A stretch of 64,000 nucleotides of DNA from an uncultured Gammaproteobacteria bacterium. GTDB taxonomy: Bacteria; Patescibacteriota; Microgenomatia; Levybacterales; UBA12049. The stretch covers positions 1,185,887-1,249,886 of the forward strand of contig OZ246394.1 in the NCBI GenBank assembly GCA_965230895.1, read 5' to 3'. Of this stretch, positions 6,788-63,764 are shown piece by piece. Numbering within the stretch: the first letter of the stretch is position 1; every line of letters starts with the position of its first letter. Both the position numbers and the translations under genes were made by a program. The notes under the pieces were generated by a model that saw nothing but the letters and a program-made list of their open reading frames with translations, made no database searches and had not been told where the DNA came from.

Positions 6788-7812
6788 TAAATAACGTTAA
6801 TTGTACCTCTATACATTCCCATACTACACATAAATGAAATTTGTCCTGTTTTTTGAGGAGCTGTAAATGTTACGGTTTGAGAAGTACCCATTGGTACAAT
6901 TTTTTCTACTCCAAGTTCAGGAATTGTAAATGCTTGTGCACAATTATTGCTATCTTGATTCTCAAGATGGATCGTGACAGCAGCTCCTGCATTTACAGAG
7001 AAGTTATGTGGCGTGTACCCTGCTGAACTAATAACAATATTTGTATCATTGGTAGGCGCAGGGATATTTCTCTCACTTGTGCAAAAGCTTAATGTACACC
7101 AAACGTTCTTTGCCATCCCATCTATCGTATAATTACTTCCAGTCAAGGCAATTGCATTATTAAAATTGAATAAAGCAAATGATAAGAGAATAACTGCAGC
7201 GAATTTTGTAATCAATTCCGTTGTCGAAGATGTTACCTTACTTGTAAAGTAGCCAAGCAAAAAGAATATAGGAGATGTTCCTAAAACAAAAGCAAAAAGA
7301 ATAAGTGCTCCTGTAAGTGGATTACCTGATCCAATACTCAGAGCCATCATGGCCTGTGTTGCACCACATGGAATAAATACTGTAAAAGCTCCAATAATAG
7401 CTGGCGCAAAAATATTTTTACTTTTTGTTTCCTTACGAATTAACTTCGTTAAAAAATATGGGGGTTGAATTACAAAATAACGAAATATCGGATGAACCTT
7501 TAAAAGATTCAGTGCTGTACCTAACATAAATATCGCTACAACTACCTGAAGAGCAATTTGTAAATTTAAACTGAATTGAAGTGTGGATCCAAGCCAACCA
7601 AGAAGAAATCCAAGAATTGTATATGCAGTAAGCTTCGACAGAAGAAACCAGAGTATTGGTTGCATTGTACCGCTCACAGCTTTCTCTGTAAGATGTGATT
7701 CATGTCGCTGTGCAATAGTAGCAGCAAGGAGGCCGCCCTGAACGGCCATACACGAGAGTCCTCCAGCAAGTAGTCCTGTTAAAAAAATTCCAATTAATTG
7801 TCCAGTCTCCAT
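6787..7812 (-). CDS. polytopic membrane protein (DsbD_2-like TM region) with C-terminal cupredoxin-like domain; putative metal transporter
   Basis: N-terminal GLLAGGLSCMAVQGGLL TM motif and about 7 TM helices; C-terminal soluble domain with ...NNCAQAF...FMCSMGMY. Immediately downstream of copZ, sharing start/stop overlap. Confidence 0.4.
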   Translation of the reverse strand: METGQLIGIFLTGLLAGGLSCMAVQGGLLAATIAQRHESHLTEKAVSGTMQPILWFLLSKLTAYTILGFLLGWLGSTLQFSLNLQIALQVVVAIFMLGTALNLLKVHPIFRYFVIQPPYFLTKLIRKETKSKNIFAPAIIGAFTVFIPCGATQAMMALSIGSGNPLTGALILFAFVLGTSPIFFLLGYFTSKVTSSTTELITKFAAVILLSFALFNFNNAIALTGSNYTIDGMAKNVWCTLSFCTSERNIPAPTNDTNIVISSAGYTPHNFSVNAGAAVTIHLENQDSNNCAQAFTIPELGVEKIVPMGTSQTVTFTAPQKTGQISFMCSMGMYRGTINVI

Positions 7813-41760: not shown

Positions 41761-41781
41761 TCGTAAGAATGAACTCTTTTG

Positions 41782-41868
41782 CGGAGGAGATGAGATTCGA
41801 ACTCATGGACCCTTTGACAGGTCGGAGGTTTAGTAAACCTCTGCACTCGGCCACTATGCGACTCCTCC
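41782..41868 (-). tRNA. type II Ser-like tRNA with anomalous anticodon loop UUACUAA (apparent anticodon ACU)
   Basis: Manual fold: acceptor GGAGGAG/CTCCTCC, discriminator G, D-arm almost identical to the Ser(UGA) gene, anticodon arm GAGGT-TTACTAA-ACCTC. Confidence 0.55.
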
Positions 41869-43956: not shown

Positions 43957-44043
43957 GGAGGAGTCGGATAGCGGTCTATTCCACACGCTTGGAAAGCGTG
44001 CGAGCGCAAGCTCACGCGGGTTCGAATCCCGCCTCCTCCGCCA
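43957..44043 (+). tRNA. tRNA-Ser (anticodon GGA), type II, CCA encoded
   Basis: Acceptor GGAGGAG/CTCCTCC, anticodon arm CACGC-TTGGAAA-GCGTG, long variable arm, 3' GCCA. Confidence 0.85.
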
Positions 44044-44552: not shown

Positions 44553-44627
44553 GTTCCAACATCGTCCCACTTGGCCCGCACCTCGGATACTATTGACATC
44601 GCAAGGTAAATCCATCACACTGAAATT

Positions 44628-46610
44628 ATGCGTAGTTCTGCCCTCGCTCGTTCGTTTGCGAAATTTTTCTTTTCTTTTATTCTTTCTGCCGGTGTAGGCC
44701 TTGCCTTCTTCTTCAGCTTCGCGAACTTTGCATCAGCACAGACTGTTACTCCAATCCCTACTGCAGTTACCCAGCCAGCTACCTATGATGAGTTCCGTAC
44801 ACCAAATGTGGATCCTGATGTCCCACGAAATCATCATACATATGTACAAGTTGTTGTTATTGATCTGCTATCAGCATTAATGTGCCAAATGATAGGTGTA
44901 GATCCTACATCTCCGACACAACAATGCTTAACCTTTAACCCTGTTACAAATAATTTAGGCTATGCAGACCAACAATTTGGACAGTCGTCCTCCCCACAAC
45001 TTGGAGGAGCAGTCGGAACCATGGCGACACTAATCGGTGGTATGTATACACCAACAGTCAGCTCTACACAATACATGAGTTATCTGTCTTCAAACTTCGG
45101 TATCGTTAAGACTGCAAATGCACAGGCACCAGCTGGAGGAGATTGTTCAAAGGATACTAATTTTGGATATGGATTCTGCGGATTACAGCCTATTTTTAAT
45201 TTATGGGTAGCAATGAGAGACTTCTCATATGCGCTACTGGTAATAGCCTTTATTTTCCTGGGTGTTGGTGTGATGCTGCGTTTTAAAGTCGACCCGAGGA
45301 CAGTAATGAATCTCCAGAACCAGATTCCAAGAGTCATTATCGCGATCCTTCTTATTACGTTTTCTTATGCGATTGCCGGTGGAATGGTTGACCTGATGTG
45401 GACGGTCACATACTCTGGCGTAAATATGATTGCAAGTACTACCCCCGATGCAAAAGTTAGAGAAGGTTGCGGCAACGAACCTGGGGACGGAGTTTCATTG
45501 ACAGAATCCGCCACAAATAACTTATTAGACAATCCTGTTAGTTTTGCGAATAGAATTTATTTACGTGATTGTAATGGCGTGGATAGCGGAATTGTAAATG
45601 TTTCAGGCCGCGTAACAGATGCATTCATTGCGCTGGCTATAAGCATCATCAAGGAGATCACTGGATGGAATATAGACAATCTTAATTGCGGCGTTATTAC
45701 AGGAAATATTGGTGATTGTCTTGTTGAAGCAGGACTATGGCTAACTGAGCTGATCATCACACTTATTATCTTGGTGACTATATTTATTGCTCTTTTCCGA
45801 CTATGGTTTGAACTTATAAAGGCTTATATTACCTTCTTTATTTTCGTAATTCTTGGTCCGATATGGATTGTGCTAGGACTTGTGCCGGGAAGACCTCTCG
45901 GCTTTGAGAAATGGTTCAGATTGATCTTTGCAAACCTTGCAGCGTTCCCACTTGTAGCTTTTATTCTTGTCTTCGCTCGAGTTGTTGTGGAGTCTGTACA
46001 AAAAGACCCAACAGTACCTGTTAATCCGACAGCAATCTTTGTTCCACCACTTGTAGGAAATCCTAATGCAAATGCATTCGGGGTACTCCTCGCTTTAGGG
46101 GCAATTCTTATCGCGCCAACCATCCCAGGCATGATCCGCGAAAGAATGAAGGTTGGACAAGGTAAGTTCGGTACGACAATTGCAGCAGGACTTGGTATTG
46201 CGACAGGAATTGCAGCAGCGCCTGCCACCAAGGCTTGGAAGAGTCTTAATAGAAGGAATTCAACAACAGGAGCTCCTGAGGGAACTTTGGCAGTATGGAA
46301 GCATCGAGCTGCCGGAAAGGTACCTGGTGTAAAAACCTTACGAGCACGAAATGCGGCAACAAGGCAACAATACGCTGCCGAGCAACAAGGACAAAATCTT
46401 TCAAGAAGAGAAGCACTCTTTAATACAGCAACAGAAGGTGGAGCAAGAAGACAACGTATTTTCGGAAGAGCAACTAATCAAGAACAACAAAGGATGTATA
46501 GCAAAACATCGGGAGAGGAGAGACAAAATCTTTTCAATCAAGCGTCATCCCAACAAAAGCAAAACCTTATCAACCAAGATCACGACGAGGCAAAGAAACA
46601 GAATAAATAA
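44628..46610 (+). CDS. polytopic membrane protein, putative T4SS VirB6/TrbL-like component
   Basis: Signal peptide, about 180-aa extracytoplasmic region, then about 6 TM helices and a C-terminal Q/N/R-rich hydrophilic tail. This is architecture only, with no sequence signature. Confidence 0.35.
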   Translation: MRSSALARSFAKFFFSFILSAGVGLAFFFSFANFASAQTVTPIPTAVTQPATYDEFRTPNVDPDVPRNHHTYVQVVVIDLLSALMCQMIGVDPTSPTQQCLTFNPVTNNLGYADQQFGQSSSPQLGGAVGTMATLIGGMYTPTVSSTQYMSYLSSNFGIVKTANAQAPAGGDCSKDTNFGYGFCGLQPIFNLWVAMRDFSYALLVIAFIFLGVGVMLRFKVDPRTVMNLQNQIPRVIIAILLITFSYAIAGGMVDLMWTVTYSGVNMIASTTPDAKVREGCGNEPGDGVSLTESATNNLLDNPVSFANRIYLRDCNGVDSGIVNVSGRVTDAFIALAISIIKEITGWNIDNLNCGVITGNIGDCLVEAGLWLTELIITLIILVTIFIALFRLWFELIKAYITFFIFVILGPIWIVLGLVPGRPLGFEKWFRLIFANLAAFPLVAFILVFARVVVESVQKDPTVPVNPTAIFVPPLVGNPNANAFGVLLALGAILIAPTIPGMIRERMKVGQGKFGTTIAAGLGIATGIAAAPATKAWKSLNRRNSTTGAPEGTLAVWKHRAAGKVPGVKTLRARNAATRQQYAAEQQGQNLSRREALFNTATEGGARRQRIFGRATNQEQQRMYSKTSGEERQNLFNQASSQQKQNLINQDHDEAKKQNK

Positions 46611-46637: not shown

Positions 46638-49622
46638 TTAATACCCTCTAAAGACTGCATTAAGGAACATAGTCACAGAATCACTTAATCCTCCATCAGA
46701 TTTATGTTTGGTTAGATCCTGCCAGAGGCCACGAAGGAACATTCTGAATTCGGTAGTCTTGGAAAGATTCTTCAACCATTTGATATCTTCTTTCGAGAAG
46801 AAGTTCTTGGTTACAGCTCCAGCAGTAAGATTAAATTCATCACCAAGGAAGTCTGCCGGGATCGAGTTAATTGCATCGAGAACTGTCGTGAAATAGTGAA
46901 CATTATAATTTGGATCTTTACTATGCTTGTCTATGTGTGTCCATAAGTCTCCCCCAAGTTTCATTAGCGCCCATTGTTTGTATGCTTGCGTTGGTTTCTC
47001 TTGGAGCTTTGTATAGTCAATCTCATAGCGACCATCAGCACCGATAATCCACTTCCCTGGTTTATCTTTTCCATTTTCATCTTTTTCACATTTACGATAT
47101 TCAGGAATGTCCAATATTTGATGCCCAAAAAGTGCCTCTCCCAACGGCATTTCTCGGAACTCATACTTATCCTTGCCATTCTTATCTCGTCCCATGAAGA
47201 CTTGATCCCGGACAAGCATGCTGTAGTTTACTTCACCAAACGTGTCAAATAAATATCGGAGCGGTTTCAAGAAATCTTCCTGAATTTCTTTCTGGAATTC
47301 TTCCCTATTGAAACTCATATGGCGGGTGAGAGGATCATACTTAGAGAATTTATCAAACTTAATCTCCTTTGCGCCCATAAGTCCATCGTATACTTTTTGA
47401 GCACGAGCGACGTGGTTCGCGACGTAATTTGTCATCGCCCGCTCATGGAACTCCAATTGTCCGGCGACACGGTTAGCGCTTTTATATAAATCTTCAAGTT
47501 CTTTCCGCTTTGCATTATATTTTTCAACATCATTTTTAGACTCCTCTATTTCTTTTTCCAAACGTTTTCTCGCTGCAAGCTGCTCAAGTCGCGTTTCGTT
47601 CATATCTTCAAAGACTTCACGGAGTGCTTTTTTTCGAGTTTGCTTTTTTCCGTTACGATCAACAACTTCATTGCCATCTTTATCTTTTGAATTTGTATAG
47701 GCCTGAGACACGCGAATACCATTCATGAAGTCCAACATTACTCGCTTGAACATCGGAATTGTATACAGATTACCTGCGCCATTACCACGTGAATCGGTAA
47801 CCATCTTTCGACGATATCCTTCTGTTCCCGTAAGCTTCTTTGTCGAGTCATACGCTGAAAAACCAACGTCATTTCTTGTCGCAGCTCCAGAAAAACGTAG
47901 CCATGATTTGGCGAGAAGAAGCGCCATATCCAAACTCGCATTGTCGACCACCATTGCATCACCATGATCGAGGGCATGTTCGTCAACTGCATAGATATTC
48001 TGTTCTCCCGAAGTAAATGAATGCTGGTCTTGAAGCGAAATTTTGAGTGCCTCTCGTACCACTTTTTCTAGCATTCCACTGTAGGCCATAGCGCCAAAGT
48101 AGTTTGCAAACGCTGAAAATCCACCTTTCTTTTCACCGGTTTTTGGGTCAATCTGATATTCCACAGCGTTTCCCTCTTTGTCAAAAGCAGCATCAAAACC
48201 ATTTGCTTGATCACCTAGGAATACCATCATTTCATCACGGCTAACGCGAGTTTGTTTATGTTTGCTTTTTACAACATTCTTCATCGCTTGCTTCCATGTA
48301 TCCTTCTGGAAGAATATTGAATCTTCCCCCATGACATTCTGCAATTCTTTGAAATCAGCCAGATTATAGTAGGCAAGCAAAGCCGTCGTAAATGCTGCTC
48401 CGACTTTATCATCAGGTTGTTCTTTGTTGTAGTCAAGCGCAAACGTAGACATAAAGTATGTCATGCTTTTACCATAGGAGGATTTTGTAATCTTATTCTT
48501 ATAATACAACTCGTTCAATTTCTTCGTGAGGTCTCCACCGCTTGACATCACTGTCTGGTAGTTTAGATCATAGTTTCGGAGATACATGACAGACAGCACT
48601 TCTTTAAGCAATTGATCATAAAGCTCTGTATTCATATGATTATCTTCATCATTAAAGAAACGAGATTTTTCGTCGATGAGGTCGTCAAGGGTAACAGGGC
48701 GGTATTCTTTTGGAATTTTGACTGCATGAAAGAAATCCACTTCAGAATCTGGTTCTTTATCATCAGCATAGAAGACGATAATCGTACGCATCCATCGCAT
48801 AAAATTTGCGTTATTCACATGATATCTTCCTCTAAATTCACCTTTCTCATCTTTCCGTACTTCCATCTGCATGATTGGGTATCGTCCATTAATACCAAAT
48901 TCAGCAGAGTCGTTGTAACCGATTTGCCAACCAAGTTGCTCTAATCCTTGAGGAGTTTTACTATCGTATTCGTTTTTATTCTCGTCGTTGAATTCATCAT
49001 AAAGAACATATTTGCGGACATATTCATCACGATCGATGCCAAGTCCGTGCGTTTCATTTGTGAGGAGCACTCGTTTTCTATAGTCTTTGCGGCTCCCACC
49101 ATATCGTTCTACGTAACGATCGACCTCGGCCTGAATTTCATTTTCGGCCTTATCACTCAAGTTAAGCATTTCACGGGTTTTGGCAACTGCCGCATCACCT
49201 GTGTAACCCTGGCCGACGAGGATTTCCATGAGGTTGTTAATTTTCCCTCGGACAGCTCTCTTTTCAAGCTCTGTCATAGCTGTTTCATCCCAATCAAGTA
49301 TTTTTTTGAGGTTCTCAGCAACTTCTTTTTTTTGTTTATTCTCTTCATTTTCTACATCCCAACCAAATTCCTTCCAGCTATCCATTTTACGAAGTACTGT
49401 TCCTTGTTTTTTCTCGGCTTGTTCCGCTTCAACACCAGCATCTAAGCCTGCTTCAAACTCTCGGAGCTCTTCCTCAATCTCAGACCATCTTTTCGGAGAA
49501 ATTCTTTTTGCAGCTGCAACGGCCTCTTCTGCAGAGTTTTCGGCAACATCTACTCCACCTTCATTCATAGTTCTATTATATCGGCTTGCGGAGAAGCCAG
49601 TCAATTCACTGTGGTTTTCCAT
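46638..49622 (-). CDS. large (994 aa) soluble protein of unknown function
   Basis: Uninterrupted ORF with no TM and no recognisable catalytic motif; sits between the VirB6-like gene and the regulator. Confidence 0.5.
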   Translation of the reverse strand: MENHSELTGFSASRYNRTMNEGGVDVAENSAEEAVAAAKRISPKRWSEIEEELREFEAGLDAGVEAEQAEKKQGTVLRKMDSWKEFGWDVENEENKQKKEVAENLKKILDWDETAMTELEKRAVRGKINNLMEILVGQGYTGDAAVAKTREMLNLSDKAENEIQAEVDRYVERYGGSRKDYRKRVLLTNETHGLGIDRDEYVRKYVLYDEFNDENKNEYDSKTPQGLEQLGWQIGYNDSAEFGINGRYPIMQMEVRKDEKGEFRGRYHVNNANFMRWMRTIIVFYADDKEPDSEVDFFHAVKIPKEYRPVTLDDLIDEKSRFFNDEDNHMNTELYDQLLKEVLSVMYLRNYDLNYQTVMSSGGDLTKKLNELYYKNKITKSSYGKSMTYFMSTFALDYNKEQPDDKVGAAFTTALLAYYNLADFKELQNVMGEDSIFFQKDTWKQAMKNVVKSKHKQTRVSRDEMMVFLGDQANGFDAAFDKEGNAVEYQIDPKTGEKKGGFSAFANYFGAMAYSGMLEKVVREALKISLQDQHSFTSGEQNIYAVDEHALDHGDAMVVDNASLDMALLLAKSWLRFSGAATRNDVGFSAYDSTKKLTGTEGYRRKMVTDSRGNGAGNLYTIPMFKRVMLDFMNGIRVSQAYTNSKDKDGNEVVDRNGKKQTRKKALREVFEDMNETRLEQLAARKRLEKEIEESKNDVEKYNAKRKELEDLYKSANRVAGQLEFHERAMTNYVANHVARAQKVYDGLMGAKEIKFDKFSKYDPLTRHMSFNREEFQKEIQEDFLKPLRYLFDTFGEVNYSMLVRDQVFMGRDKNGKDKYEFREMPLGEALFGHQILDIPEYRKCEKDENGKDKPGKWIIGADGRYEIDYTKLQEKPTQAYKQWALMKLGGDLWTHIDKHSKDPNYNVHYFTTVLDAINSIPADFLGDEFNLTAGAVTKNFFSKEDIKWLKNLSKTTEFRMFLRGLWQDLTKHKSDGGLSDSVTMFLNAVFRGY

Positions 49623-49688: not shown

Positions 49689-51017
49689 TTAGCTTATAAA
49701 TTTGAAGCCACGGCCTTTAATTGTATGGAGATGTGTCGGATGATTTGCATCTTCCTCAATTTTTCGCCGTACACGAAAAATAAGCTGATCCACGGCCTGA
49801 TCCGTGATACCTGCTGTTGACTTCATGCTCGACCATACTACGTTAATAAGTTCTTCCCGGTCCACAACTCGATCCTCATTCTGTAGCAAGTAGGTCAGCA
49901 AACGAAACTCAGATGAGGTGAGCTGGTCAGAAAGAATTGTCGAACCCTTCTTAATAGTATTAGTATTTTGATCATAAATAATTTTCTTTGATGTACTATT
50001 TTCCGTACCAGAATCTGAAGCCACAAACGCCGAAAGGAGCGGGATCTGCACAATATTATCTTTTAATAACCCTATGTTTTGGAGATATGTACGGACTTCT
50101 TCCTCTTCAAAACTATTCTCTTGGATATCAGCTTGTTCTGCAGGAGAAAGTGACAACCATATCTCACGTAAAGCACTCTTTATAGTTTTCTGCGCTAATA
50201 GATACTTTTGGAGATCGTCAGGGATCTCGCCATAACCAAGTAACGACTCTACTGCAATTTTGGTCAATTTACCATGTCCACCAGTCAGCTTCAACACGGC
50301 ATCGAGAACAGATTTTTCAAGTTTTTTGCTGGAAACTTTCTCTACAAATGATAGGCGATGTTTCGAAAAGACTTCATCATATAAAGAGACATAGACAATC
50401 TTCCCTGCAACAAATTCATAATAATCTGCAAGAAGTGATGGCTCCAAAAGATCTTCCAAAGGCCGATTTACAGAAAATACAATTGAGAAATGATATTTTG
50501 CTCGATTCCTAAGAATTCTCAAGTTACTAAAGAATTCCACAGGTACAGTACGGATATATTCCTCAAAGCGACTAAAGAGGAAGACCGTGGTTAGCTTGCG
50601 TTCCAATGCAAGGTAATCGATTGCTTCTTTGAATCCTTGGAAAAGAACCAGTTCATCATTGAATTGTAAATGCTCACGGAACTTATCTCCAACAACCTGG
50701 TTCTCTGCCTTCAAGCCACGTTCGCGTAACGACTCAGTTAAATTGAGGAAGAGAAATTTCATAACATCAAAGAGTGGTCGTGTTTTAATCTCAGAAAAGT
50801 CTACGATGACGAAATGCGTATTCTTTTGAGCATCCTTCAGGTATTTTTGTCTGATCTTACTATTATTTGCCAACAGCCCGAGGATTGTTGAACGACTGAC
50901 ACCCGGCATTCCGACAACCTGGCAAGAATTACCTTCCTTAATATATTGGATAATTTTTGAGATTTCCTCTTCACGTGTTGTGTCTGGAAATTGTGCTTCA
51001 AAATATTCTTCTACCAT
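49689..51017 (-). CDS. AAA+/P-loop ATPase fused to C-terminal OmpR/PhoB-type winged-helix DNA-binding domain (putative regulator)
   Basis: N-terminal VVGMPGVSRSTILGLL P-loop-like segment with hhhhD-type Walker B candidates (FVIVDFSE, VFLFSRFEE). C-terminal LTSSEFRLLTYLLQNEDRVVDREELINVVW...DQLIFRVRRKIE...TIKGRGFKF matches the trans_reg_C signature. Confidence 0.6.
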   Translation of the reverse strand: MVEEYFEAQFPDTTREEEISKIIQYIKEGNSCQVVGMPGVSRSTILGLLANNSKIRQKYLKDAQKNTHFVIVDFSEIKTRPLFDVMKFLFLNLTESLRERGLKAENQVVGDKFREHLQFNDELVLFQGFKEAIDYLALERKLTTVFLFSRFEEYIRTVPVEFFSNLRILRNRAKYHFSIVFSVNRPLEDLLEPSLLADYYEFVAGKIVYVSLYDEVFSKHRLSFVEKVSSKKLEKSVLDAVLKLTGGHGKLTKIAVESLLGYGEIPDDLQKYLLAQKTIKSALREIWLSLSPAEQADIQENSFEEEEVRTYLQNIGLLKDNIVQIPLLSAFVASDSGTENSTSKKIIYDQNTNTIKKGSTILSDQLTSSEFRLLTYLLQNEDRVVDREELINVVWSSMKSTAGITDQAVDQLIFRVRRKIEEDANHPTHLHTIKGRGFKFIS

Positions 51018-51101
51018 ACTATGATTCTAATTTGTTTCAAGCCAATCTTCAAGTAAATTTCTATGCTTGCATAGCATGCAGTTCTTTAGTATCGTAGATT
51101 T

Positions 51102-51428
51102 ATGGACTACTTAGCACTTACCTTACCAGGGAATAGATCAATTGAACCACCTGCAGGAGCAAATTTGCCCACAGGAGGATTAGACACATTATCCAATGCT
51201 ATTAGCGTCGGAATTTCATGGATGATTATTATTGCAATCATCCTTTCCTTATTTTTTCTTGTAACAGGAGGTATTGCTTGGTCTTCATCTGGTGGAGATA
51301 AGGGCAAAATTGCAGCTGCAAGAGCAAGACTTACGTATGCTCTTGTTGGTTTACTCGTAGCAATTTCAGCGTTCTTCATAATTAATGTATTCGGAACCTT
51401 TTTGGGCGTTAAATTCTTTGGGAATTGA
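51102..51428 (+). CDS. VirB2/T4SS-pilin-like small hydrophobic protein, paralog 1
   Basis: Shares the TM-GGIAWSSSGGDKGKIAAARARLTYALVGLLVAISAFFI core with the next two genes; N-terminal region lacks a clear signal peptide. Confidence 0.45.
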   Translation: MDYLALTLPGNRSIEPPAGANLPTGGLDTLSNAISVGISWMIIIAIILSLFFLVTGGIAWSSSGGDKGKIAAARARLTYALVGLLVAISAFFIINVFGTFLGVKFFGN

Positions 51429-51467: not shown

Positions 51468-51896
51468 ATGATGAATAAAGATAATATGAAAAAAGTTCTA
51501 ACAGCGATAGTTTCAGGAAGTGCAGCATACCTTGCAACAGCAGGATACGCATTAGCAGGAACAAGTGTTGATCCATGTGATGGTATCCAAAGTGGATTTG
51601 ATACGCTTTGCGGTCTTAGTGGAGATAATCTTGGAGCAATTATTGGTGCTGCTGTTACCTTCATCTTGATTGTTGCAGTTCTTATCGCTCTCTTCTTCCT
51701 TATCTTTGGAGGTATCCGATGGATCACATCAGGTGGAGATAAAGCAAAAGTAGAAAGTGCACGAGGCACTATTATCGCAGCAATCATTGGTTTAGTTATC
51801 GCTTTCTTAGCATTCTTCATCCTCTCACTCGCTTTGAGTTTCTTCGGCTTGAGTCTCTCAAACCTTCAACTCCCTACACTCGAAGGAATCAACTAA
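51468..51896 (+). CDS. VirB2/T4SS-pilin-like protein, paralog 2
   Basis: Signal peptide (real start probably MKKVLTAIV at 51486), two TM helices flanking GGIRWITSGGDKAKVESARG. Confidence 0.55.
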   Translation: MMNKDNMKKVLTAIVSGSAAYLATAGYALAGTSVDPCDGIQSGFDTLCGLSGDNLGAIIGAAVTFILIVAVLIALFFLIFGGIRWITSGGDKAKVESARGTIIAAIIGLVIAFLAFFILSLALSFFGLSLSNLQLPTLEGIN

Positions 51897-51973
51897 GATT
51901 CTCTTTACATTTACTCTAATTGATATTGTTATACCTCTTGCATTCTATTAAATATCTTTGCTAGGCTAATTAT

Positions 51974-52372
51974 ATGTTAAAGAAATTACTTGTATCAGCT
52001 CTAGCTGTAGTAACTTTATTTTTCGCTACGGCACCAGTCGCGCCTGTACATGCACAATTTCGGGATTGGGATCAAGGTTGTTTGAAAGATGGTGTAGCAT
52101 CACTTCGATGTATTCCATTTGTGTTTGGAAATATTGTAACAGCTCTTCTTATCTTTGTAGGGACAGTAGCTGTTATCTTGCTCGTTTATGCGGGCATTCG
52201 ATTTATCACATCAGGTGGAGACCCAAAGAAAGTTGCAGGGGCACGACAAATAATTACGTACGCCATAATTGGATTAGTACTTGTATTATCATCGTTCCTA
52301 ATAATTACACTCATCAGTTACACAACTGGCGTCGAATGTATCAGGACGTTTGGATTTGCTAACTGCAAATAG
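51974..52372 (+). CDS. VirB2/T4SS-pilin-like protein, paralog 3
   Basis: Signal peptide MLKKLLVSALAVVTLFFATAPVAPVHA; core AGIRFITSGGDPKKVAGARQIITYAIIGLVL. Confidence 0.55.
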   Translation: MLKKLLVSALAVVTLFFATAPVAPVHAQFRDWDQGCLKDGVASLRCIPFVFGNIVTALLIFVGTVAVILLVYAGIRFITSGGDPKKVAGARQIITYAIIGLVLVLSSFLIITLISYTTGVECIRTFGFANCK

Positions 52373-52601: not shown

Positions 52602-54002
52602 ATGGACCAACATCCTATACCACAAGACGTTACCGGATTTCAGTTTAAATTGATCGGCACAATGACTGTTAAGCAGTTCGGTTATGTTGCGGTGGGAGCA
52701 GTAATGGCAGTTGTCCTCTATTACCTACCTCTATCAGGTTTTTTTGCTGTTCTTTTTAAAGTATTTATGATCCCTATACTTGGAGCAAGTGGCGTTATTG
52801 TTGCTTTTGTACCAATAGACGGTCGACCGATAGATACTATGGCTACAAATTTTGTAAAAGCACTCTTTTCTCCAAATCAGTATATATATAAAAGACAAGG
52901 GAGAAAGATGAGCTTTTCAACAGTAACAGTAGTCAAGCCTGTGGCTGCAACGACGACAGCACAAACTGCAGCAACCCCAGTAAAGTCAGTGGGTTCAGCA
53001 AAAGATCTTGATGCTAAAGAAGAAAAATTAAGAGCATTCCTTATGAGTTCTCAAGGACGAGTTAAAAACGATCTTGATAAAAAGGAGGCATCGTTCCTTA
53101 AGACATTCGGACCCCCAGCTATTGCTGTACCAAATAAAGCACAGATTGGAGCAGCTCCTACACCAGCTATTCCAGTGAGACCTGCTGCACCAACATTACA
53201 GAAAGCTCAGGTGGCAAAACCGACAATAATACAACCACTGTCACAAATACAGAAAACTGCACCTTTGACACCAAAACCAGCAATTACGCCAGCTCAACCT
53301 GTTCAAAAACCAGTAATGGCTGCTCCTGCTCCACAAAAGGAAACACCAGAGACATTGGCACAGAAAGAACAAGTACTGACACAAGAACTTGCGCAAGCAA
53401 AGCAGGAAGAAGCTACACAAGTACAACCTGCTGCACATGATGCGGCTCATGCAAAGGTAGAAATACTTGCAAAGCAAATTGAAGATATCCATTCTCAAAA
53501 GCAGAAGCTTGAGACTGAACTTATGGCCTTGAGACAGCAGCTCACAGAACAAAAGAGTCAGCCAACACCAGTTCAACAGCCTGCGACTGTACCAGCTCCA
53601 GCTGCAAAACCAGCAATCCCAATCCAGGACCCGCATCTAGTCAAAGTTGTAGCCGCAGATGGAGCAGTAAAGAAGCATGATGTTCCACGAGTATCAGACA
53701 CACCAAATGTTGTTGTTGGTATTGTAAAAGATCCTCGAGGTAACATATTGTCAAATATACTTGTTGAGGTAAAAGATAGCGAAGGAAACCCGGTAAGAGC
53801 ATTTAAGACAAATCCTCTTGGACAGTTTGCTTCTGCAACACCTCTTAGTCCAGGAGTGTATACATTGGAGCTTGAAGATCCAAAGAAGCAACACAGTTTT
53901 GATGTTATTCAGATAACTGCGAATAATGAGATTATGCGTCCGATTGAAGTTATTTCTCATGATGCTCGAGAAGCATTGCGACAACAACTGTTCGCATCTT
54001 AA
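52602..54002 (+). CDS. membrane-anchored protein with Pro/Ala/Gln-rich linker, coiled-coil and C-terminal CarboxypepD_reg-like beta-sandwich
   Basis: Two N-terminal TM helices; PAxP-rich spacer; C-terminal VVGIVKDPRGNILSNILVEVKDSEGNPV...GVYTLELE pattern. Confidence 0.4.
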   Translation: MDQHPIPQDVTGFQFKLIGTMTVKQFGYVAVGAVMAVVLYYLPLSGFFAVLFKVFMIPILGASGVIVAFVPIDGRPIDTMATNFVKALFSPNQYIYKRQGRKMSFSTVTVVKPVAATTTAQTAATPVKSVGSAKDLDAKEEKLRAFLMSSQGRVKNDLDKKEASFLKTFGPPAIAVPNKAQIGAAPTPAIPVRPAAPTLQKAQVAKPTIIQPLSQIQKTAPLTPKPAITPAQPVQKPVMAAPAPQKETPETLAQKEQVLTQELAQAKQEEATQVQPAAHDAAHAKVEILAKQIEDIHSQKQKLETELMALRQQLTEQKSQPTPVQQPATVPAPAAKPAIPIQDPHLVKVVAADGAVKKHDVPRVSDTPNVVVGIVKDPRGNILSNILVEVKDSEGNPVRAFKTNPLGQFASATPLSPGVYTLELEDPKKQHSFDVIQITANNEIMRPIEVISHDAREALRQQLFAS

Positions 54003-56764: not shown

Positions 56765-59533
56765 ATGGCCACTGATACCAAACCTAAAGACGAAGTAGAA
56801 AATGGACTAGTTGATCCTAAAAAAAAAGAACAACAAGAACAAGATCACGAATTTGAACTCCATCAAATAGCCCAAACCGCAAGTGGCAGAATACGTCGTT
56901 ATGGATTACGATTAAAGGCAGGACCAAAGCTCCATCAGGAAGTTAATGAATTAGCCGAAACTATTGAAAAAAGCATCACTTCACTCGCAAAGAAGGCACG
57001 ATCCGAAGACGCGCTACTTATTCAGGTTGAGGAAGAAATTCATAAAGTTGAGAAATATATTGATTCTGAAGCAAAGGCAGAGCACAAAAAAGAGAAAGAC
57101 GAAGAAGAGCGAGAAAAAAAAGAGAAGGAGGAAAAAGAACATCATGGAGGGCACGAGGAACATGAAGAGCATGATACAAGCCGCCACGAACAAGAAAAAC
57201 CTGCCAGCGCAAATAAAACGGTTGAGGAAAAAAGTCGAGATAAAGTAGAAGAACTAAAGGCTGAAATTGCAGCCGGAATAGCTGGAACTGCCGCGAGCAC
57301 AACCGTAGGATCTTCCCAAGCTTTTACTGATGAGCGCGCCAAACAACTCAAGGCAGAACAGGAAGCATATTTATCAGAAGCTGAAAAAGCAAGAATCGCA
57401 GCACTCCCCCCTGAAGAAAGAGCAAAAGTACGCTTAGAACAGATTAGAAATGGGACATACAAGAAACCTGAGATATCTGTGAAGCCTTCTGAAGGAGCTA
57501 AACCGAGAACAGATGCCGAAGCAGTTGAAGGATTTCATAAACAGCAACGCCCAGATGCAGCAAAAAAACGCCTCGAGCAATTGAGAGAAGAAGTACGATC
57601 ACAGAGAACTACCACCGGTGCACAAAAAAGCGTGAGAAAAATGGGGAGAAGCGCGCCTGCGCAAAGAAAACAATTAAGGACACAGACTCCTGGTTCAGTG
57701 ATACCAACTCGCCCCATGCCTCCACGACGAGTGCAAACAAGGATTTCTGCTGGGACAAGCCGACGAGGACCTGGGGGAAAAATAACTACAACATCAACTA
57801 CTGAGAGTATATTCTCTCATGACGACGGGAGAACATACGAAGACATTACCGAATTTAGAATGCGAAGGCCGATGCCTTCAACCATGACGACAGAGGCAGA
57901 AACACGTGGTGGATCATACGGACATGGTTCAGGTGGCTCACAAGGTGGCGGATCTGAGCATGGAGGTGACAGTGGCGGTGGCAGCGGAGGATCAGGTGGA
58001 GGAAACAACAGAGGTGGTTTAGGTCGAGCAAATCCTTTAAGAAATATTATGCGTGGAGGATTAGGTGGAGGACCAAAAGGATTAGCAAGCAAAGGACTTC
58101 AGGGATTAGCGAAAAACGGAACAAAGGTTGCTGCACAAGCCGCTCTGCGTAATCCTTATGTACTTGCTGCACTTGCAGTATTACTTATAGTTATTTTCCT
58201 TATATTATTTATCCTTGTACTTCTTGGTGATGCTGAAGAACAAAATCAGAAGAACGCATGCCAGGCTCCAGCCGAAACACTAAAAGCAACGATAACAGGA
58301 CCTGCAGCTGCAAATGCAGGCCAAGAACTAACATATGCAGTAAATATTACTGACACGGTTGCTGCACAAGATATTACAGTTGTAGCAACTATACCTCAAG
58401 GACAAACGTTCGTAAGATCAGATTGGGCAAAAAGCGTCGTCACAGGAAATACTGTAACCTGGAAGGCTGTGGAGAATCTCCCGCCAAACAGTTTAAGCCC
58501 CCCAAACTTTACTTTTAATATTACAGTTAGTCCAGGTGCAGCAAATACAAATTCTGTAATCATGGTTGATGCAACCCCTGTGAGAGCAGCCGCTATTGCT
58601 CCAGGCGGTGGTGGAGATCAACAGGCAGGAAGACAGAAAAGCACTGAAGAATTAAAGTCAATTTATGGTGCAGATCAGGCTGCGGTTGAAGCCAATCTTG
58701 TCACAATCAACTTTCAAGGAAAACAAGTTCAGGTACACAAACTTGTTCAAGGCGTATTTGAAAAAGTGAATAATGAAATAACAGCTGCAAATACCGGATA
58801 TGAATTTAGACAGGTTGGTACGTATGCATGGCGTACAAAGAATATTCCAGGTCAAAATTCTACAGAACTTTCAACACATAGTTTTGGGATAACCATGGAT
58901 ATTAATCCTGATACCAATCCTTACACTACGGCCAATACTCATGATATTCCGCAGCCAATCGTAGACATTTTCAAAAGAAACGGATTTATCTGGGGTGGTG
59001 ATTGGACGCCACAGCATGACTGGATGCATTTTGAATATGCTGGAGCACCAGGAGCAGTGCCAGGATCTGGAAATACTGGTGGCGGATGTAACCCAGGAGC
59101 TGGGGCACCAGTAAATGCAAATTATGTCCCTCCAAGTGCAGATACTTGTGGAGGTAAATATAAATTAACCAGTCCTCTTAAGATGAATTTTGGAGATCCA
59201 CAGTGTAATTTTAATAAAGACGCTTTATATTCACAATTAAAGACTGAGGATCCTGCAAATGCTGATGTTTGGTTTAACAAAGTCGTGCCTTGTGAAAGTG
59301 GATATAATCCAAATGCATATGCTGGTCCAAGTACGGGTACCCCCGACGCTGCAGGAGCATGGGGTCTATATCAAATGGGTAGTGCAAACCCGCCAGGTTC
59401 CCCACCTCCTGCACCTGGTAAAAATGGAATTAATGATCGTGGAGATGTACCGTGGACAATACAAACAACTAATGCGACTACATATGGTAAAAAAATTGCG
59501 AGACTTGGAGCATATTGGGCATGTGCTAGATAA
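56765..59533 (+). CDS. membrane-anchored cell-wall hydrolase with peptidase M15 (VanY-like) and lytic-transglycosylase-like domains (VirB1/PrgK-like)
   Basis: TM LAALAVLLIVIFLILFILVLL; DUF11-like segment; M15 zinc motifs STHSFGITMDIN and DWMHFEY; SLT-like CESGYNPNAY...GAWGLYQM. N-terminal half E/K/G-rich low complexity. Confidence 0.6.
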   Translation: MATDTKPKDEVENGLVDPKKKEQQEQDHEFELHQIAQTASGRIRRYGLRLKAGPKLHQEVNELAETIEKSITSLAKKARSEDALLIQVEEEIHKVEKYIDSEAKAEHKKEKDEEEREKKEKEEKEHHGGHEEHEEHDTSRHEQEKPASANKTVEEKSRDKVEELKAEIAAGIAGTAASTTVGSSQAFTDERAKQLKAEQEAYLSEAEKARIAALPPEERAKVRLEQIRNGTYKKPEISVKPSEGAKPRTDAEAVEGFHKQQRPDAAKKRLEQLREEVRSQRTTTGAQKSVRKMGRSAPAQRKQLRTQTPGSVIPTRPMPPRRVQTRISAGTSRRGPGGKITTTSTTESIFSHDDGRTYEDITEFRMRRPMPSTMTTEAETRGGSYGHGSGGSQGGGSEHGGDSGGGSGGSGGGNNRGGLGRANPLRNIMRGGLGGGPKGLASKGLQGLAKNGTKVAAQAALRNPYVLAALAVLLIVIFLILFILVLLGDAEEQNQKNACQAPAETLKATITGPAAANAGQELTYAVNITDTVAAQDITVVATIPQGQTFVRSDWAKSVVTGNTVTWKAVENLPPNSLSPPNFTFNITVSPGAANTNSVIMVDATPVRAAAIAPGGGGDQQAGRQKSTEELKSIYGADQAAVEANLVTINFQGKQVQVHKLVQGVFEKVNNEITAANTGYEFRQVGTYAWRTKNIPGQNSTELSTHSFGITMDINPDTNPYTTANTHDIPQPIVDIFKRNGFIWGGDWTPQHDWMHFEYAGAPGAVPGSGNTGGGCNPGAGAPVNANYVPPSADTCGGKYKLTSPLKMNFGDPQCNFNKDALYSQLKTEDPANADVWFNKVVPCESGYNPNAYAGPSTGTPDAAGAWGLYQMGSANPPGSPPPAPGKNGINDRGDVPWTIQTTNATTYGKKIARLGAYWACAR

Positions 59534-62654: not shown

Positions 62655-63764
62655 TTAACTTTGAACGCGGATTGGCATGATCATATGAAGGTACGATTCA
62701 TCACCTTGAACTTTAAATACACCAGGATTCAACGGTCCAATCATATCAAACGCTAAATCTTTTTCTTCAACATTTGAGAGAACATCTAAGAGATATCGTG
62801 CATTAAATGCAATTTCATTCTCTTCCCCATTTAATTTAGCATCAACACGAACAGTGTTTTCTCCTATAGCGGATGATCCTGAAGAAACAGTGATGTGGTC
62901 CGATGAAAGAGCAAGCTTAATGATATTTGCAGAATCTCGAGCAAAGACTGAACATATTTTTACGGCTTTTAATAATTCATCTTTATCGAAGGAAACACTG
63001 ACTGAGAAGTCTGACGGGATTATCTTTTCAAAATTAGGAAACTCCGCTTCAATTAATCTTCCAATTAAAATTGTATCCTCCTGTTCAAATAGTACCTGAT
63101 TATTTTGTTGCGAGACATACATGGATATATCTTTGTTTTCATCCTTCAGAGAAAGTAATTCTCGGAATACACGCGCTGGAATAATGAATGACGACGCTTC
63201 TGAAGCTTTATTCTCTGAAGTTTTATAATGACGTAGTGAGAGTCTATAACCATCGGTCGCTACAAGAAGAAATCCCTCAGCTTCTTTACGAACTAAGACA
63301 CCTGATAATGCAGGTCGTGTTGTATCAGGACTGGCAGAAAAAACGACTGACGAGAACTCTTTCTTAATATCTTTACCAGATAATGTTGCTAATATTTCTC
63401 CTCGTTCTTCATAAAGCTTAGGGAATTCTTCGCTACTGATTGTTTGAAAGGTACTCTTAGTTCGCTTTGTTTGAACTTCGAGCGTACTATCTTCAGAGGT
63501 TAAGGTTAATACTTCATCAGTTAGTGAATTAATAAGCTCTGTAAATAATTTTGCTGGTACTGTAGTTTCTCCCTCTTCTTCTATCTTCGCTGGACAATAA
63601 GTCTCAATACCTATTTCAAGATCAGTCGTACTTAGTTTTACTTTATCTCCTTTTGCTTCTATCAAAATATTCTGTAGAACGGGTAATTGGCTTTTAGAAG
63701 AGACTGCTTTATTAAGAAACGAAAGTTTATTTTGAAGGTTAGGGGTCAATATCTGTACTTTCAT
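62655..63764 (-). CDS. dnaN: DNA polymerase III beta subunit (sliding clamp)
   Basis: MKVQILTPNLQNKLSFLNKAVSSKSQLPVLQNILIEA... three-domain DnaN, 369 aa. Confidence 0.9.
   Translation of the reverse strand: MKVQILTPNLQNKLSFLNKAVSSKSQLPVLQNILIEAKGDKVKLSTTDLEIGIETYCPAKIEEEGETTVPAKLFTELINSLTDEVLTLTSEDSTLEVQTKRTKSTFQTISSEEFPKLYEERGEILATLSGKDIKKEFSSVVFSASPDTTRPALSGVLVRKEAEGFLLVATDGYRLSLRHYKTSENKASEASSFIIPARVFRELLSLKDENKDISMYVSQQNNQVLFEQEDTILIGRLIEAEFPNFEKIIPSDFSVSVSFDKDELLKAVKICSVFARDSANIIKLALSSDHITVSSGSSAIGENTVRVDAKLNGEENEIAFNARYLLDVLSNVEEKDLAFDMIGPLNPGVFKVQGDESYLHMIMPIRVQS

Follow-up and report, generated by a model that had tools for sequence, protein, structure and literature searches.

A candidate sensor-less STAND regulator with an OmpR/PhoB-type winged helix at the pilin/T4SS-like locus of Levybacteria

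A 2026 survey of STAND proteins names only MalT, GutR and AfsR as STAND transcription factors (PMC13581612), and AfsR and other large SARPs are described in PMC10936776 as binding at or beside the −35 element of their targets. Patescibacteria's type IV secretion system (T4SS)-like system is nearly universal in this group and essential for epibiotic growth in the one genetically tractable relative (PMC12102498); a regulator of it is neither named in that survey nor was one found in our literature searches. Here we analyzed a gene for a 442-amino-acid (aa) protein, called the regulator below, in a 64,000-nucleotide (nt) stretch of contig OZ246394.1 (positions 1,185,887 to 1,249,886; the window), which is labeled as an uncultured Gammaproteobacteria bacterium and placed by GTDB in the Levybacterales (Patescibacteriota). 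The protein combines an N-terminal STAND-class module with a C-terminal winged helix and is encoded back to back with three T4SS pilin genes. We propose, with a probability of about 0.62, that it is a one-component regulator of the STAND type without a sensor, devoted to the chromosomal pilin/T4SS-like locus of Levybacteria, which are uncultured and ultra-small, and of related candidate phyla radiation (CPR) bacteria.

The proposed regulatory role is backed by the genomic context, since linkage to the pilin/T4SS operon was found in 38 of 38 related loci. For this count the window proteins were searched by tblastn against all fetched loci, and the family loci with sufficient flank, mostly from Levybacteria, were considered. 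In all of them, at 41–83% identity, the regulator is located between the pilin array and a pair consisting of a protein of ~950–1235 aa and a VirB6/TrbL-like protein. The locus fits the definition of the Patescibacteria T4SS-like locus, with a pilin array, PrgI/VirB3, TrsD, VirB4 and a VirB6-like protein near dnaA/dnaN (PMC12102498). The original prediction, made from the letters of the sequence, had placed the regulator divergent from a pilin/T4SS operon with 84 nt in between, and both the arrangement and the gap (51018-51101 exactly) were borne out. The linkage persists where orientation or neighborhood differs among relatives. L021, L030-33, L036, L038-39 and L041 have an inverted regulator gene, which stands there as the first of a series running in one direction, followed by a signal-peptide protein and the pilins, and in L026-28 the pilins adjoin the regulator, with VirB4 not within 7 kb. 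Two more distant clades also adjoin pilin genes, P0134 (38% identity, with a canonical GVGKS) and P0140 (36%, with Arg at the Walker A Lys position). In many genomes the block is bounded by tRNA-Ser(GGA) on one side and dnaN/dnaA on the other, and it is therefore a stable core locus and not an island; this agrees with the origin-proximal T4SS reported for Patescibacteria (PMC12102498).

The C-terminal domain is of the OmpR/PhoB type, as originally predicted from the strings LTSSEFRLLTYLL, VDREELINVVW, FRVRRKIE and IKGRGFKF, all of which are found in the translation of the open reading frame (ORF), together with GMPGVSRST at residues 36-44. Pfam Trans_reg_C (PF00486) covers residues 365-440 (E=1.2e-18, 67.4 bits at a curated cutoff of 26.2), the DNA-binding domains of WalR, RegX3, PhoB and OmpR match the same C-terminal stretch in a search of PDB sequences with E values down to 2e-8, and Foldseek against the PDB returned the DNA-binding domains of YycF, VicR and KdpE with template modeling scores of 0.78-0.81. 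The AlphaFold2 model shows a sheet, three helices and a wing hairpin in this part (E346-361, H368-379, H387-394, H406-420, E430-440). In the family alignment KSTAGITDQAVDQLIFRVRRKIE, which comprises the recognition helix together with the loop ahead of it, is nearly invariant, implying that a putative interface with DNA or RNA polymerase is conserved. The Pfam search of the regulator gave no Response_reg match, and its N-terminus has a P-loop fold instead; since it lacks a receiver domain, the regulator is not a response regulator. In agreement with this, the NCBIfam response-regulator models cover only residues ~343-441, with scores far under their cutoffs. Neither BTAD nor GerE was matched in the Pfam search, and the regulator's winged helix-turn-helix (wHTH) domain is C-terminal, unlike in SARPs. 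No sensor or repeat domain (TPR, WD40, LRR, SUPR) was found in the Pfam search or in the model, and the protein ends after the wHTH domain at residue 442.

Because of the modeled fold, the Foldseek matches and a profile match to nSTAND1/AAA_16-type relatives, the N-terminal ~335 aa are assigned to the STAND/AAA+ class of nucleotide-binding oligomerization domain (NOD) modules. Residues 1-340 of the window protein matched nothing significant among Pfam, NCBIfam and PDB sequences, and in the window protein and its clade the NTPase domain remains below the curated Pfam thresholds. Since the NTPase part is sub-threshold in Pfam, the T4SS-linked CPR clade carries generic database names such as 'winged helix-turn-helix domain-containing protein'. 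The AlphaFold2 model was built from a 30-sequence alignment and reaches a mean predicted local distance difference test (pLDDT) value of 86.9, with mostly >90 in the N-terminal blocks; from N to C it consists of a Rossmann-like nucleotide-binding domain (NBD), a helical lid, a winged helix, a disordered linker and the OmpR-type domain. The predicted winged helix of the NOD comprises helices at 269-314, a beta hairpin at 317-322 and a helix at 326-335 in the model, and W287, E294, Q295, Y311 and L312 are conserved. Foldseek against the PDB placed Pyrococcus PABY2304 (2qen) on top for the N-terminal module, and next came ORC/Cdc6 from archaea and eukaryotes, RFC and CED-4. The profile of the window clade aligned with the nSTAND1-type branch by hhalign over 436 columns (100% probability, E=1.1e-51), and among 70 aligned family members 43 match AAA_16, 38 nSTAND1, 38 AAA_22, 15 NPHP3_N and 6 NACHT, with AAA_35 found too. 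The earlier call of an AAA+/STAND domain was therefore right, as supported by the predicted fold and the homology to AAA_16, nSTAND1, NACHT and NPHP3_N relatives. The TGGHGKL motif of the lid aligns with TGGHPGLL or TGGyPsL of distant members, but the Pro of GxP is a Gly in the window clade; a conserved MHD-type His was not seen in the family alignment. The name 'P-loop ATPase' holds for the P-loop NTPase fold, but GMPGVSRST is non-canonical, with Arg42 for Lys, and together with Ser149 for Asp this makes an ATPase doubtful; neither the canonical Walker A pattern GxxxxGK[ST] nor the canonical Walker B pattern hhhhD is present in the window protein.

The combination of the two modules had been regarded as rare. 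A phmmer search with residues 1-340 (E<=1e-3) yielded 524 representative clusters at 50% identity, nearly all of 420-480 aa, and 68 of the 70 sampled and aligned members contain Trans_reg_C. The NTPase-then-wHTH architecture is thus uncharacterized, not rare, and a description of it is absent from PMC12102498, PMC7159879 and PMC13581612 as well as from targeted literature searches. A homologue search with the regulator returned >1000 matches, almost all with a length of 440-445 aa, and a protein identical to the window regulator (P0001) is present on 4 public contigs. Its identical gene is also carried by the runs SRR14271353/60/72. The coordinates of the regulator, its control region and the neighboring genes are given in Table 1.

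Table 1 Features of the regulator, the control region and the surrounding locus in the window
Feature	Position	Strand	Basis or remark
Regulator gene, 442 aa	49689..51017	-	Intact ORF, ATG start; stop codon 49689-49691
NBD, residues 1-210, P-loop NTPase fold	50388..51017	-	AlphaFold2 model, Foldseek, hhalign
Degenerate Walker A, G36-M-P-G-V-S-R42-S-T44	50886..50912	-	Arg replaces Lys; R42 aligns with K of GxGKS
Walker B-like strand, residues 143-153, TTVFLF-S149-RFEE	50559..50591	-	Ser replaces canonical Asp; aligned to VldrFD
Sensor-1-like Arg185 (N-R-P), end of strand beta4 (model E177-183)	50463..50465	-	Putative role, from position
Helical lid HD1, residues 215-262	50232..50375	-	Model helices H215-229, H235-245, H249-262
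GxP-like motif TGGHGKL, residues 245-251	50265-50285	-	Alignment with distant members
Predicted winged-helix domain of NOD module, residues 269-335	50013..50213	-	Model and conserved residues
Flexible linker, residues 336-344	49986..50012	-	pLDDT <50 at 337-343; sequence variable
OmpR/PhoB-type winged-helix DNA-binding domain, residues 345-442	49692..49985	-	Pfam, PDB sequence matches, Foldseek
Predicted regulator promoter, −35 TTGAAG (51052-51047), 17 nt, −10 TAGAAT (51029-51024), 6 nt, ATG	51024..51052	-	Leaderless layout
Predicted pilin promoter, −35 TTGCAT (51067-51072), 17 nt, −10 TATCGT (51090-51095), 6 nt, ATG 51102	51067..51095	+	Leaderless layout
Window-specific direct repeat TTCAAGCCAAT / TTCAAGTAAAT, 12-nt spacing	51036..51058		Over regulator −35 and spacer; candidate site, not conserved family-wide
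Perfect palindrome CTATGC-TT-GCATAG	51061..51074		Over pilin −35; candidate site, not conserved
Three VirB2-like T4SS pilin genes, presumed target operon	51102-51428, 51468-51896, 51974-52372	+	PF18895, E=9.6e-6, 3.3e-10, 3.5e-9
PrgI/VirB3-like	52602-54002	+	Profile matches; order conserved in relatives
TrsD/TraC-like, 221 aa	54011-54676	+	Profile matches; order conserved
VirB4-like ATPase, 680 aa	54676-56718	+	Profile matches; order conserved
M15 peptidase	56765-59533	+	Profile matches; order conserved
Partner, ~1000 aa (listed ORF 994 aa)	46638..49622	-	Directly downstream of regulator; synteny
Predicted partner promoter TTGACT-18-TATAAT (11/12 consensus)	49604-49575	-	Ends 6 nt before Met19 ATG
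VirB6/TrbL-like, 660 aa, convergent with partner gene	44628..46610	+	Weak TrbL match of L004 homologue; position conserved
tRNA-Ser(GGA)	43957-44043	+	Cluster boundary here and in L004, L007, L008, L009, L020, L028, L030
dnaN homologue, far end of cluster	62655-63764	-	77-85% identical to dnaN beside dnaA in L004/L005

In the compact loci, with 78-95 nt between regulator and pilins, the spacer consists almost wholly of two back-to-back sigma-70-type promoters. Toward the regulator the family has a −35 TTGAAG, 17 nt, a −10 TA[CG]AAT and 6 nt to the ATG, and toward the pilins a −35 TTGC[TA]T, 17 or 18 nt, a −10 TACGCT or TATCGT and again 6 nt to the ATG, which in the window adds up to 84 = 6+6+17+6+14+6+17+6+6. 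The two −35 hexamers are only 8-24 bp apart across the compact loci, and therefore a binding site of usual size must overlap one of them. The 6-nt gap implies that the predicted mRNAs are leaderless. Among the cluster genes inspected closely, the regulator, the first and third pilin genes (pil1 and pil3) and Met19 of the downstream partner protein are each preceded, at a distance of 6 nt from the start codon, by a TAnnnT hexamer resembling a −10 (e.g. 51024-51029, 51090-51095 and 51962-51967). For the VirB6-like gene the hexamer at this 6-nt distance is CACACT, which is weaker (44615-44620), and many other window genes have a −10-like hexamer within ~6-11 nt of their start. Shine-Dalgarno-like motifs were seen upstream of 8 of the 58 window ORFs only, so leaderless or very short-leader starts look general in the window. 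In L010 the regulator homologue (7001) seems to start with CTG, where all others have ATG, and the −10 box is not followed by any ATG in frame; either an error in sequencing or a leaderless mRNA with a non-canonical start could account for this.

We propose that the NOD, rather than a phospho-receiver, would serve as the conformational and oligomerization switch. When 'on', it would gather two or more wHTH domains, which would then bind the short shared control region and overlap at least one −35. By the simplest logic, the protein would activate the weak pilin promoter (−10 TATCGT/TACGCT) and autoregulate its own. The NOD itself may be a hydrolysis-free switch that binds a nucleotide or another ligand, or a constitutive oligomerization scaffold.

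Several observations weigh against this proposal. The synteny is partly inherited, and 38 of 38 loci do not equal 38 independent events. The NTPase assignment leans on transitive homology and predicted structure, and the nucleotide binding and oligomerization of the NOD are inferred; with both R42 and S149 the pocket could be non-functional. The original prediction that the protein controls the pilin operon through the 84-nt region agrees with the conserved linkage, but the target is deduced from synteny only, and no conserved operator was found, the conserved intergenic blocks being largely the two promoters. An operator of direct repeats with a period of 10-12 bp did no better than shuffled sequence in a family-wide test (P=0.32 and 0.84). 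Finally, the pilin −35 hexamers are fair matches, so this promoter might be active constitutively, with the protein acting as a repressor.

The alternative that survives best keeps the protein and its target, but regards it mainly as a repressor or autorepressor that would occlude the −35 pair, so that the pilin/T4SS genes would stay silent until a signal releases it. The −35 hexamers are so close together that no dimer or oligomer could bind without covering one or both, the pilin −35 (TTGCAT/TTGCTT) resembles the consensus fairly well, and in the window the palindrome sits precisely on the pilin −35 and the direct repeat on the −35 and spacer of the regulator promoter. These candidate sites are not conserved, however, and next to other window promoters, e.g. 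TTGACT-18-TATAAT, the pilin −10 (TATCGT/TACGCT) is weak, in line with a need for an activator. The loop that precedes the recognition helix is invariant and is the counterpart of the PhoB transactivation loop, and OmpR/PhoB-family domains are mostly activators at or near the −35. We thus consider repression as the main mode to be unlikely.

Other repeats around the promoters were followed as well. GAAGA- or TTGAAG-like direct repeats with 10-12 bp spacing are seen in the window, L007, L010 and L012. A tandem GAAGATT x2 (period 7) was rejected as an operator as it is restricted to one sub-clade, and the 9-mer ATAGCATGC, which also occurs in the pil3-PrgI spacer, is within chance expectation (about 0.1). 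Elsewhere, expanded regions upstream of the regulator contain tandem repeats, namely TTTGCGCTTTGAGT x2, AACAATNN x4, TAAAGTCN x4, CTTTGCA x2 and TTTTCA(A/G) arrays (L030 at ~6940-6975; upstream in L027, L033 and L039; L022 at 1-60; L026; intergenic in L008 and L028), which could be binding arrays or simple-sequence insertions.

The putative nucleotide pocket was compared in a close set of the 120 nearest cluster representatives (>=58% identity). Of these, 119 have Arg and one has Lys at position 42, and the residue before it is G, S or N in roughly equal shares. Position 149 is more variable (D in 98, N in 14 and S, as in the window protein, in 8). Much of the remaining pocket is well kept: G39 and G247 are invariant, R185 is found in 119, E152 in 118, E153 in 117 and S43 in 111 of the 120. 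The profile alignment at Walker A pairs GiPGv-R-ST with GL-G-GKSn. Distant members have the GxGKS form, with Lys in 74 and Arg in 25 of 111 proteins at the Lys position. A residue other than Asp at Walker B occurs in 30 Arg-type proteins, about a fifth, vs 2 Lys-type proteins, when all sequences are counted without phylogenetic correction, and this pattern fits a weaker constraint on catalysis once Lys had been replaced by Arg. Engineered K-to-R mutants of Walker A, such as RecA K72R, typically retain binding and lose hydrolysis. The module has probably lost ATP turnover and would act as a binding or conformational switch.

The opposite view, that the N-terminal domain has remained an active NTPase in which Arg42 stands in for Lys and which cycles between ATP and ADP like MalT or AfsR, concerns a sub-step and not the overall role. 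Arg keeps the positive charge, the constraint on G39, S43/T44, E152/E153, R185 and G247 is strong, and Arg recurs independently at the Lys position in the distant members. On the other hand, the loss of the Walker B Asp is concentrated in Arg-type proteins, the window protein combines both replacements, and engineered K-to-R mutants typically lose hydrolysis. We regard a working NTPase as somewhat more doubtful than a repressor. Equally speculative is a stronger version of our own proposal, namely that the Arg-for-Lys NOD is a hydrolysis-dead sensor of a nucleotide or phospho-ligand that couples the cell's supply of nucleotides or energy, for which an obligate epibiont depends on its host, to expression of the T4SS-like pilus. 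If this were true, a 'pseudo-ATPase' STAND switch would be the master on/off control of the host-interaction machinery in a CPR lineage.

The family derives mainly from Levybacteria/Levyibacteriota metagenome-assembled genomes, and several records have implausible taxon labels. A Levybacteria-type locus under a foreign label ('uncultured Gammaproteobacteria', Sulfotelmatobacter, Acidiferrales, Methylomirabilota, Lysobacterales, Limnocylindrales, Saccharimonadales) is present in L007, L010, L012, L015, L016, L019, L027 and others; the labels are probably placeholders or the contigs mis-binned. A distant branch of nSTAND1 plus Trans_reg_C proteins with canonical GKS shows ~20-29% identity to the N-terminal query and 21-27% over the full length. 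Directly downstream of its gene, a protein with TCAD9 (kinase-like) and AAA_16 is encoded in 25 of 43 loci (L054-L095, L048, L053), a conserved and apparently undescribed pairing within the 'ternary' STAND systems; the ternary conflict systems, including TCAD9 proteins, were defined in PMC7159879. L053 also contains sortases, a pair of small T4SS_pilin-like genes and a Peptidase_M23 ~3 kb downstream. From this locus a T4SS-pilin linkage of the distant branch was considered and ruled out, as TCAD9 partners are found in the metagenome loci instead; pilin-like genes near P0187 are an isolated case within this branch. The intermediate proteins P0150 and P0155 (GGGKA Walker A) are encoded on short contigs and directly preceded by a 123-aa gene for a 23S_rRNA_IVP/bAvd-like four-helix bundle (L047 426-797; L052 2140-2511).

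STAND NTPases are common in defense (PMC13581612), and the pairing of distant family members with TCAD9-AAA_16 of the ternary conflict systems might suggest that the regulator is a STAND-based conflict or defense component with an incidental T4SS neighborhood. We consider this highly improbable. The regulator has no PADLOC match, on which ground its identity as a defense system was rejected, and neither an effector domain nor sensor repeats; no relationship exists between its partner in CPR and the TCAD9 partner (hhalign probability 0.05%), and the chromosomal block from tRNA-Ser(GGA) to dnaN is stable in many genomes and not a variable island. Still more remote is a DNA-binding ORC/Cdc6-like AAA+ protein that would serve near the origin in replication, in segregation or in the transfer of DNA in place of a transcription factor. 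The best whole-length structural matches do include archaeal Orc/Cdc6, and the locus is ~12 kb from dnaN/dnaA, but the DNA-binding domain is a genuine Trans_reg_C, the relatives by sequence belong to STAND families whose lid motif is of the GxP type and not to initiators, and in L049 the gene stays with the pilins, away from dnaA/dnaN.

The gene downstream of the regulator encodes the partner, whose homologues of ~950-1235 aa always accompany the regulator; in most loci their gene follows immediately, and where the regulator is flipped the two genes diverge. Since a near-consensus promoter ends 6 nt before Met19, the true start of the partner is probably Met19 (ATG 49568), which would give a leaderless mRNA and a protein of 976 aa; the regulator would be monocistronic if the partner has its own promoter. 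The partner has no significant match in Pfam, NCBIfam or the PDB and in PADLOC a weak LmuB-like coiled-coil match only; the homologue search returned only 3 proteins, and the AlphaFold2 model from a 4-sequence alignment is unusable (pLDDT 47). It is probably a cytoplasmic component of the CPR T4SS-like locus. The idea that regulator and partner form an ancestral module shared with the TCAD9-AAA_16 pair was ruled out by the hhalign comparison of the partners.

Further observations concern the surroundings. The VirB4 function is split between the TrsD/TraC-like and the VirB4-like ATPase genes, which have one base in common (54676), and such a split has been described in Patescibacteria (PMC12102498). 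In the public Logan gene calls of the identical contigs L001 and L002 a 90-aa ORF antisense to pil1 (window 51107-51379, minus strand) is called in place of the pilin, which is likely a gene-calling artefact, possibly tied to the leaderless start. A sub-threshold Rfam 'tmRNA' at 44000-44043 is actually the 3' part of tRNA-Ser(GGA). ARAGORN further assigned a tRNA-Ser with the anticodon ACT (41781-41868, minus strand) between tRNA-Ser(GCT) and tRNA-Ser(TGA), found also in a 60%-identity relative (L004 18799-18886); a Ser tRNA with A34 is unusual.

The regulator is the first concrete candidate for a controller of the Patescibacteria T4SS-like system, at least in the Levybacteria branch. For STAND biology it would represent a minimal, sensor-less transcription-factor form of the switch, with a natural replacement of the Walker A Lys by Arg fixed across a large clade. 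The order of NOD followed by OmpR-type wHTH is new among characterized STAND regulators, while common in sequence databases. The protein is small and soluble and open to in vitro work on the 84-nt fragment.

Functionally, MalT and GutR are the closest described regulators, and AfsR is also close. Like these LAL family members, the regulator has an N-terminal NOD, with an NBD and a predicted helical domain and winged helix, followed by a C-terminal DNA-binding domain, and in both the NOD presumably gates multimerization and hence promoter binding. MalT and GutR differ by a large sensor (arm plus SUPR/TPR), a LuxR-type HTH, a length of ~800-900 aa and canonical Walker motifs, whereas the regulator has 442 aa, no sensor domain, an OmpR/PhoB-type wHTH and degenerate Walker A and B motifs. 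With AfsR and the large SARPs of Streptomyces it shares an OmpR/PhoB-type winged helix and a STAND NTPase in one polypeptide, but in AfsR the order is reversed (wHTH and BTAD, NB-ARC, TPR), and AfsR is phospho-regulated and ~1000 aa long, while the regulator has neither BTAD nor TPR. In PhoB, WalR/YycF and RegX3 the DNA-binding domain likewise follows a regulatory module and a flexible linker at the C-terminus; in contrast to these OmpR/PhoB response regulators, the regulator has no receiver or phospho-acceptor Asp, its place being taken by a STAND NOD of ~335 aa, and no cognate histidine kinase lies near it. The nSTAND1/AAA_16 plus Trans_reg_C proteins beside TCAD9-AAA_16 genes (PMC7159879) are full-length, two-module homologues of 440-480 aa, which differ by a GxGKS Walker A, the TCAD9 kinase-like STAND partner and the lack of T4SS linkage; individual descriptions of them were not found in the papers searched. 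PABY2304 (2qen) with the archaeal ATPase_2 family and Orc1/Cdc6 are the best structural matches, and Orc/Cdc6 shares the predicted arrangement of AAA+ base, lid and winged helix; identity is 10-15%, however, the C-terminal fold is Trans_reg_C and not the initiator winged helix, and an initiator function is unsupported.

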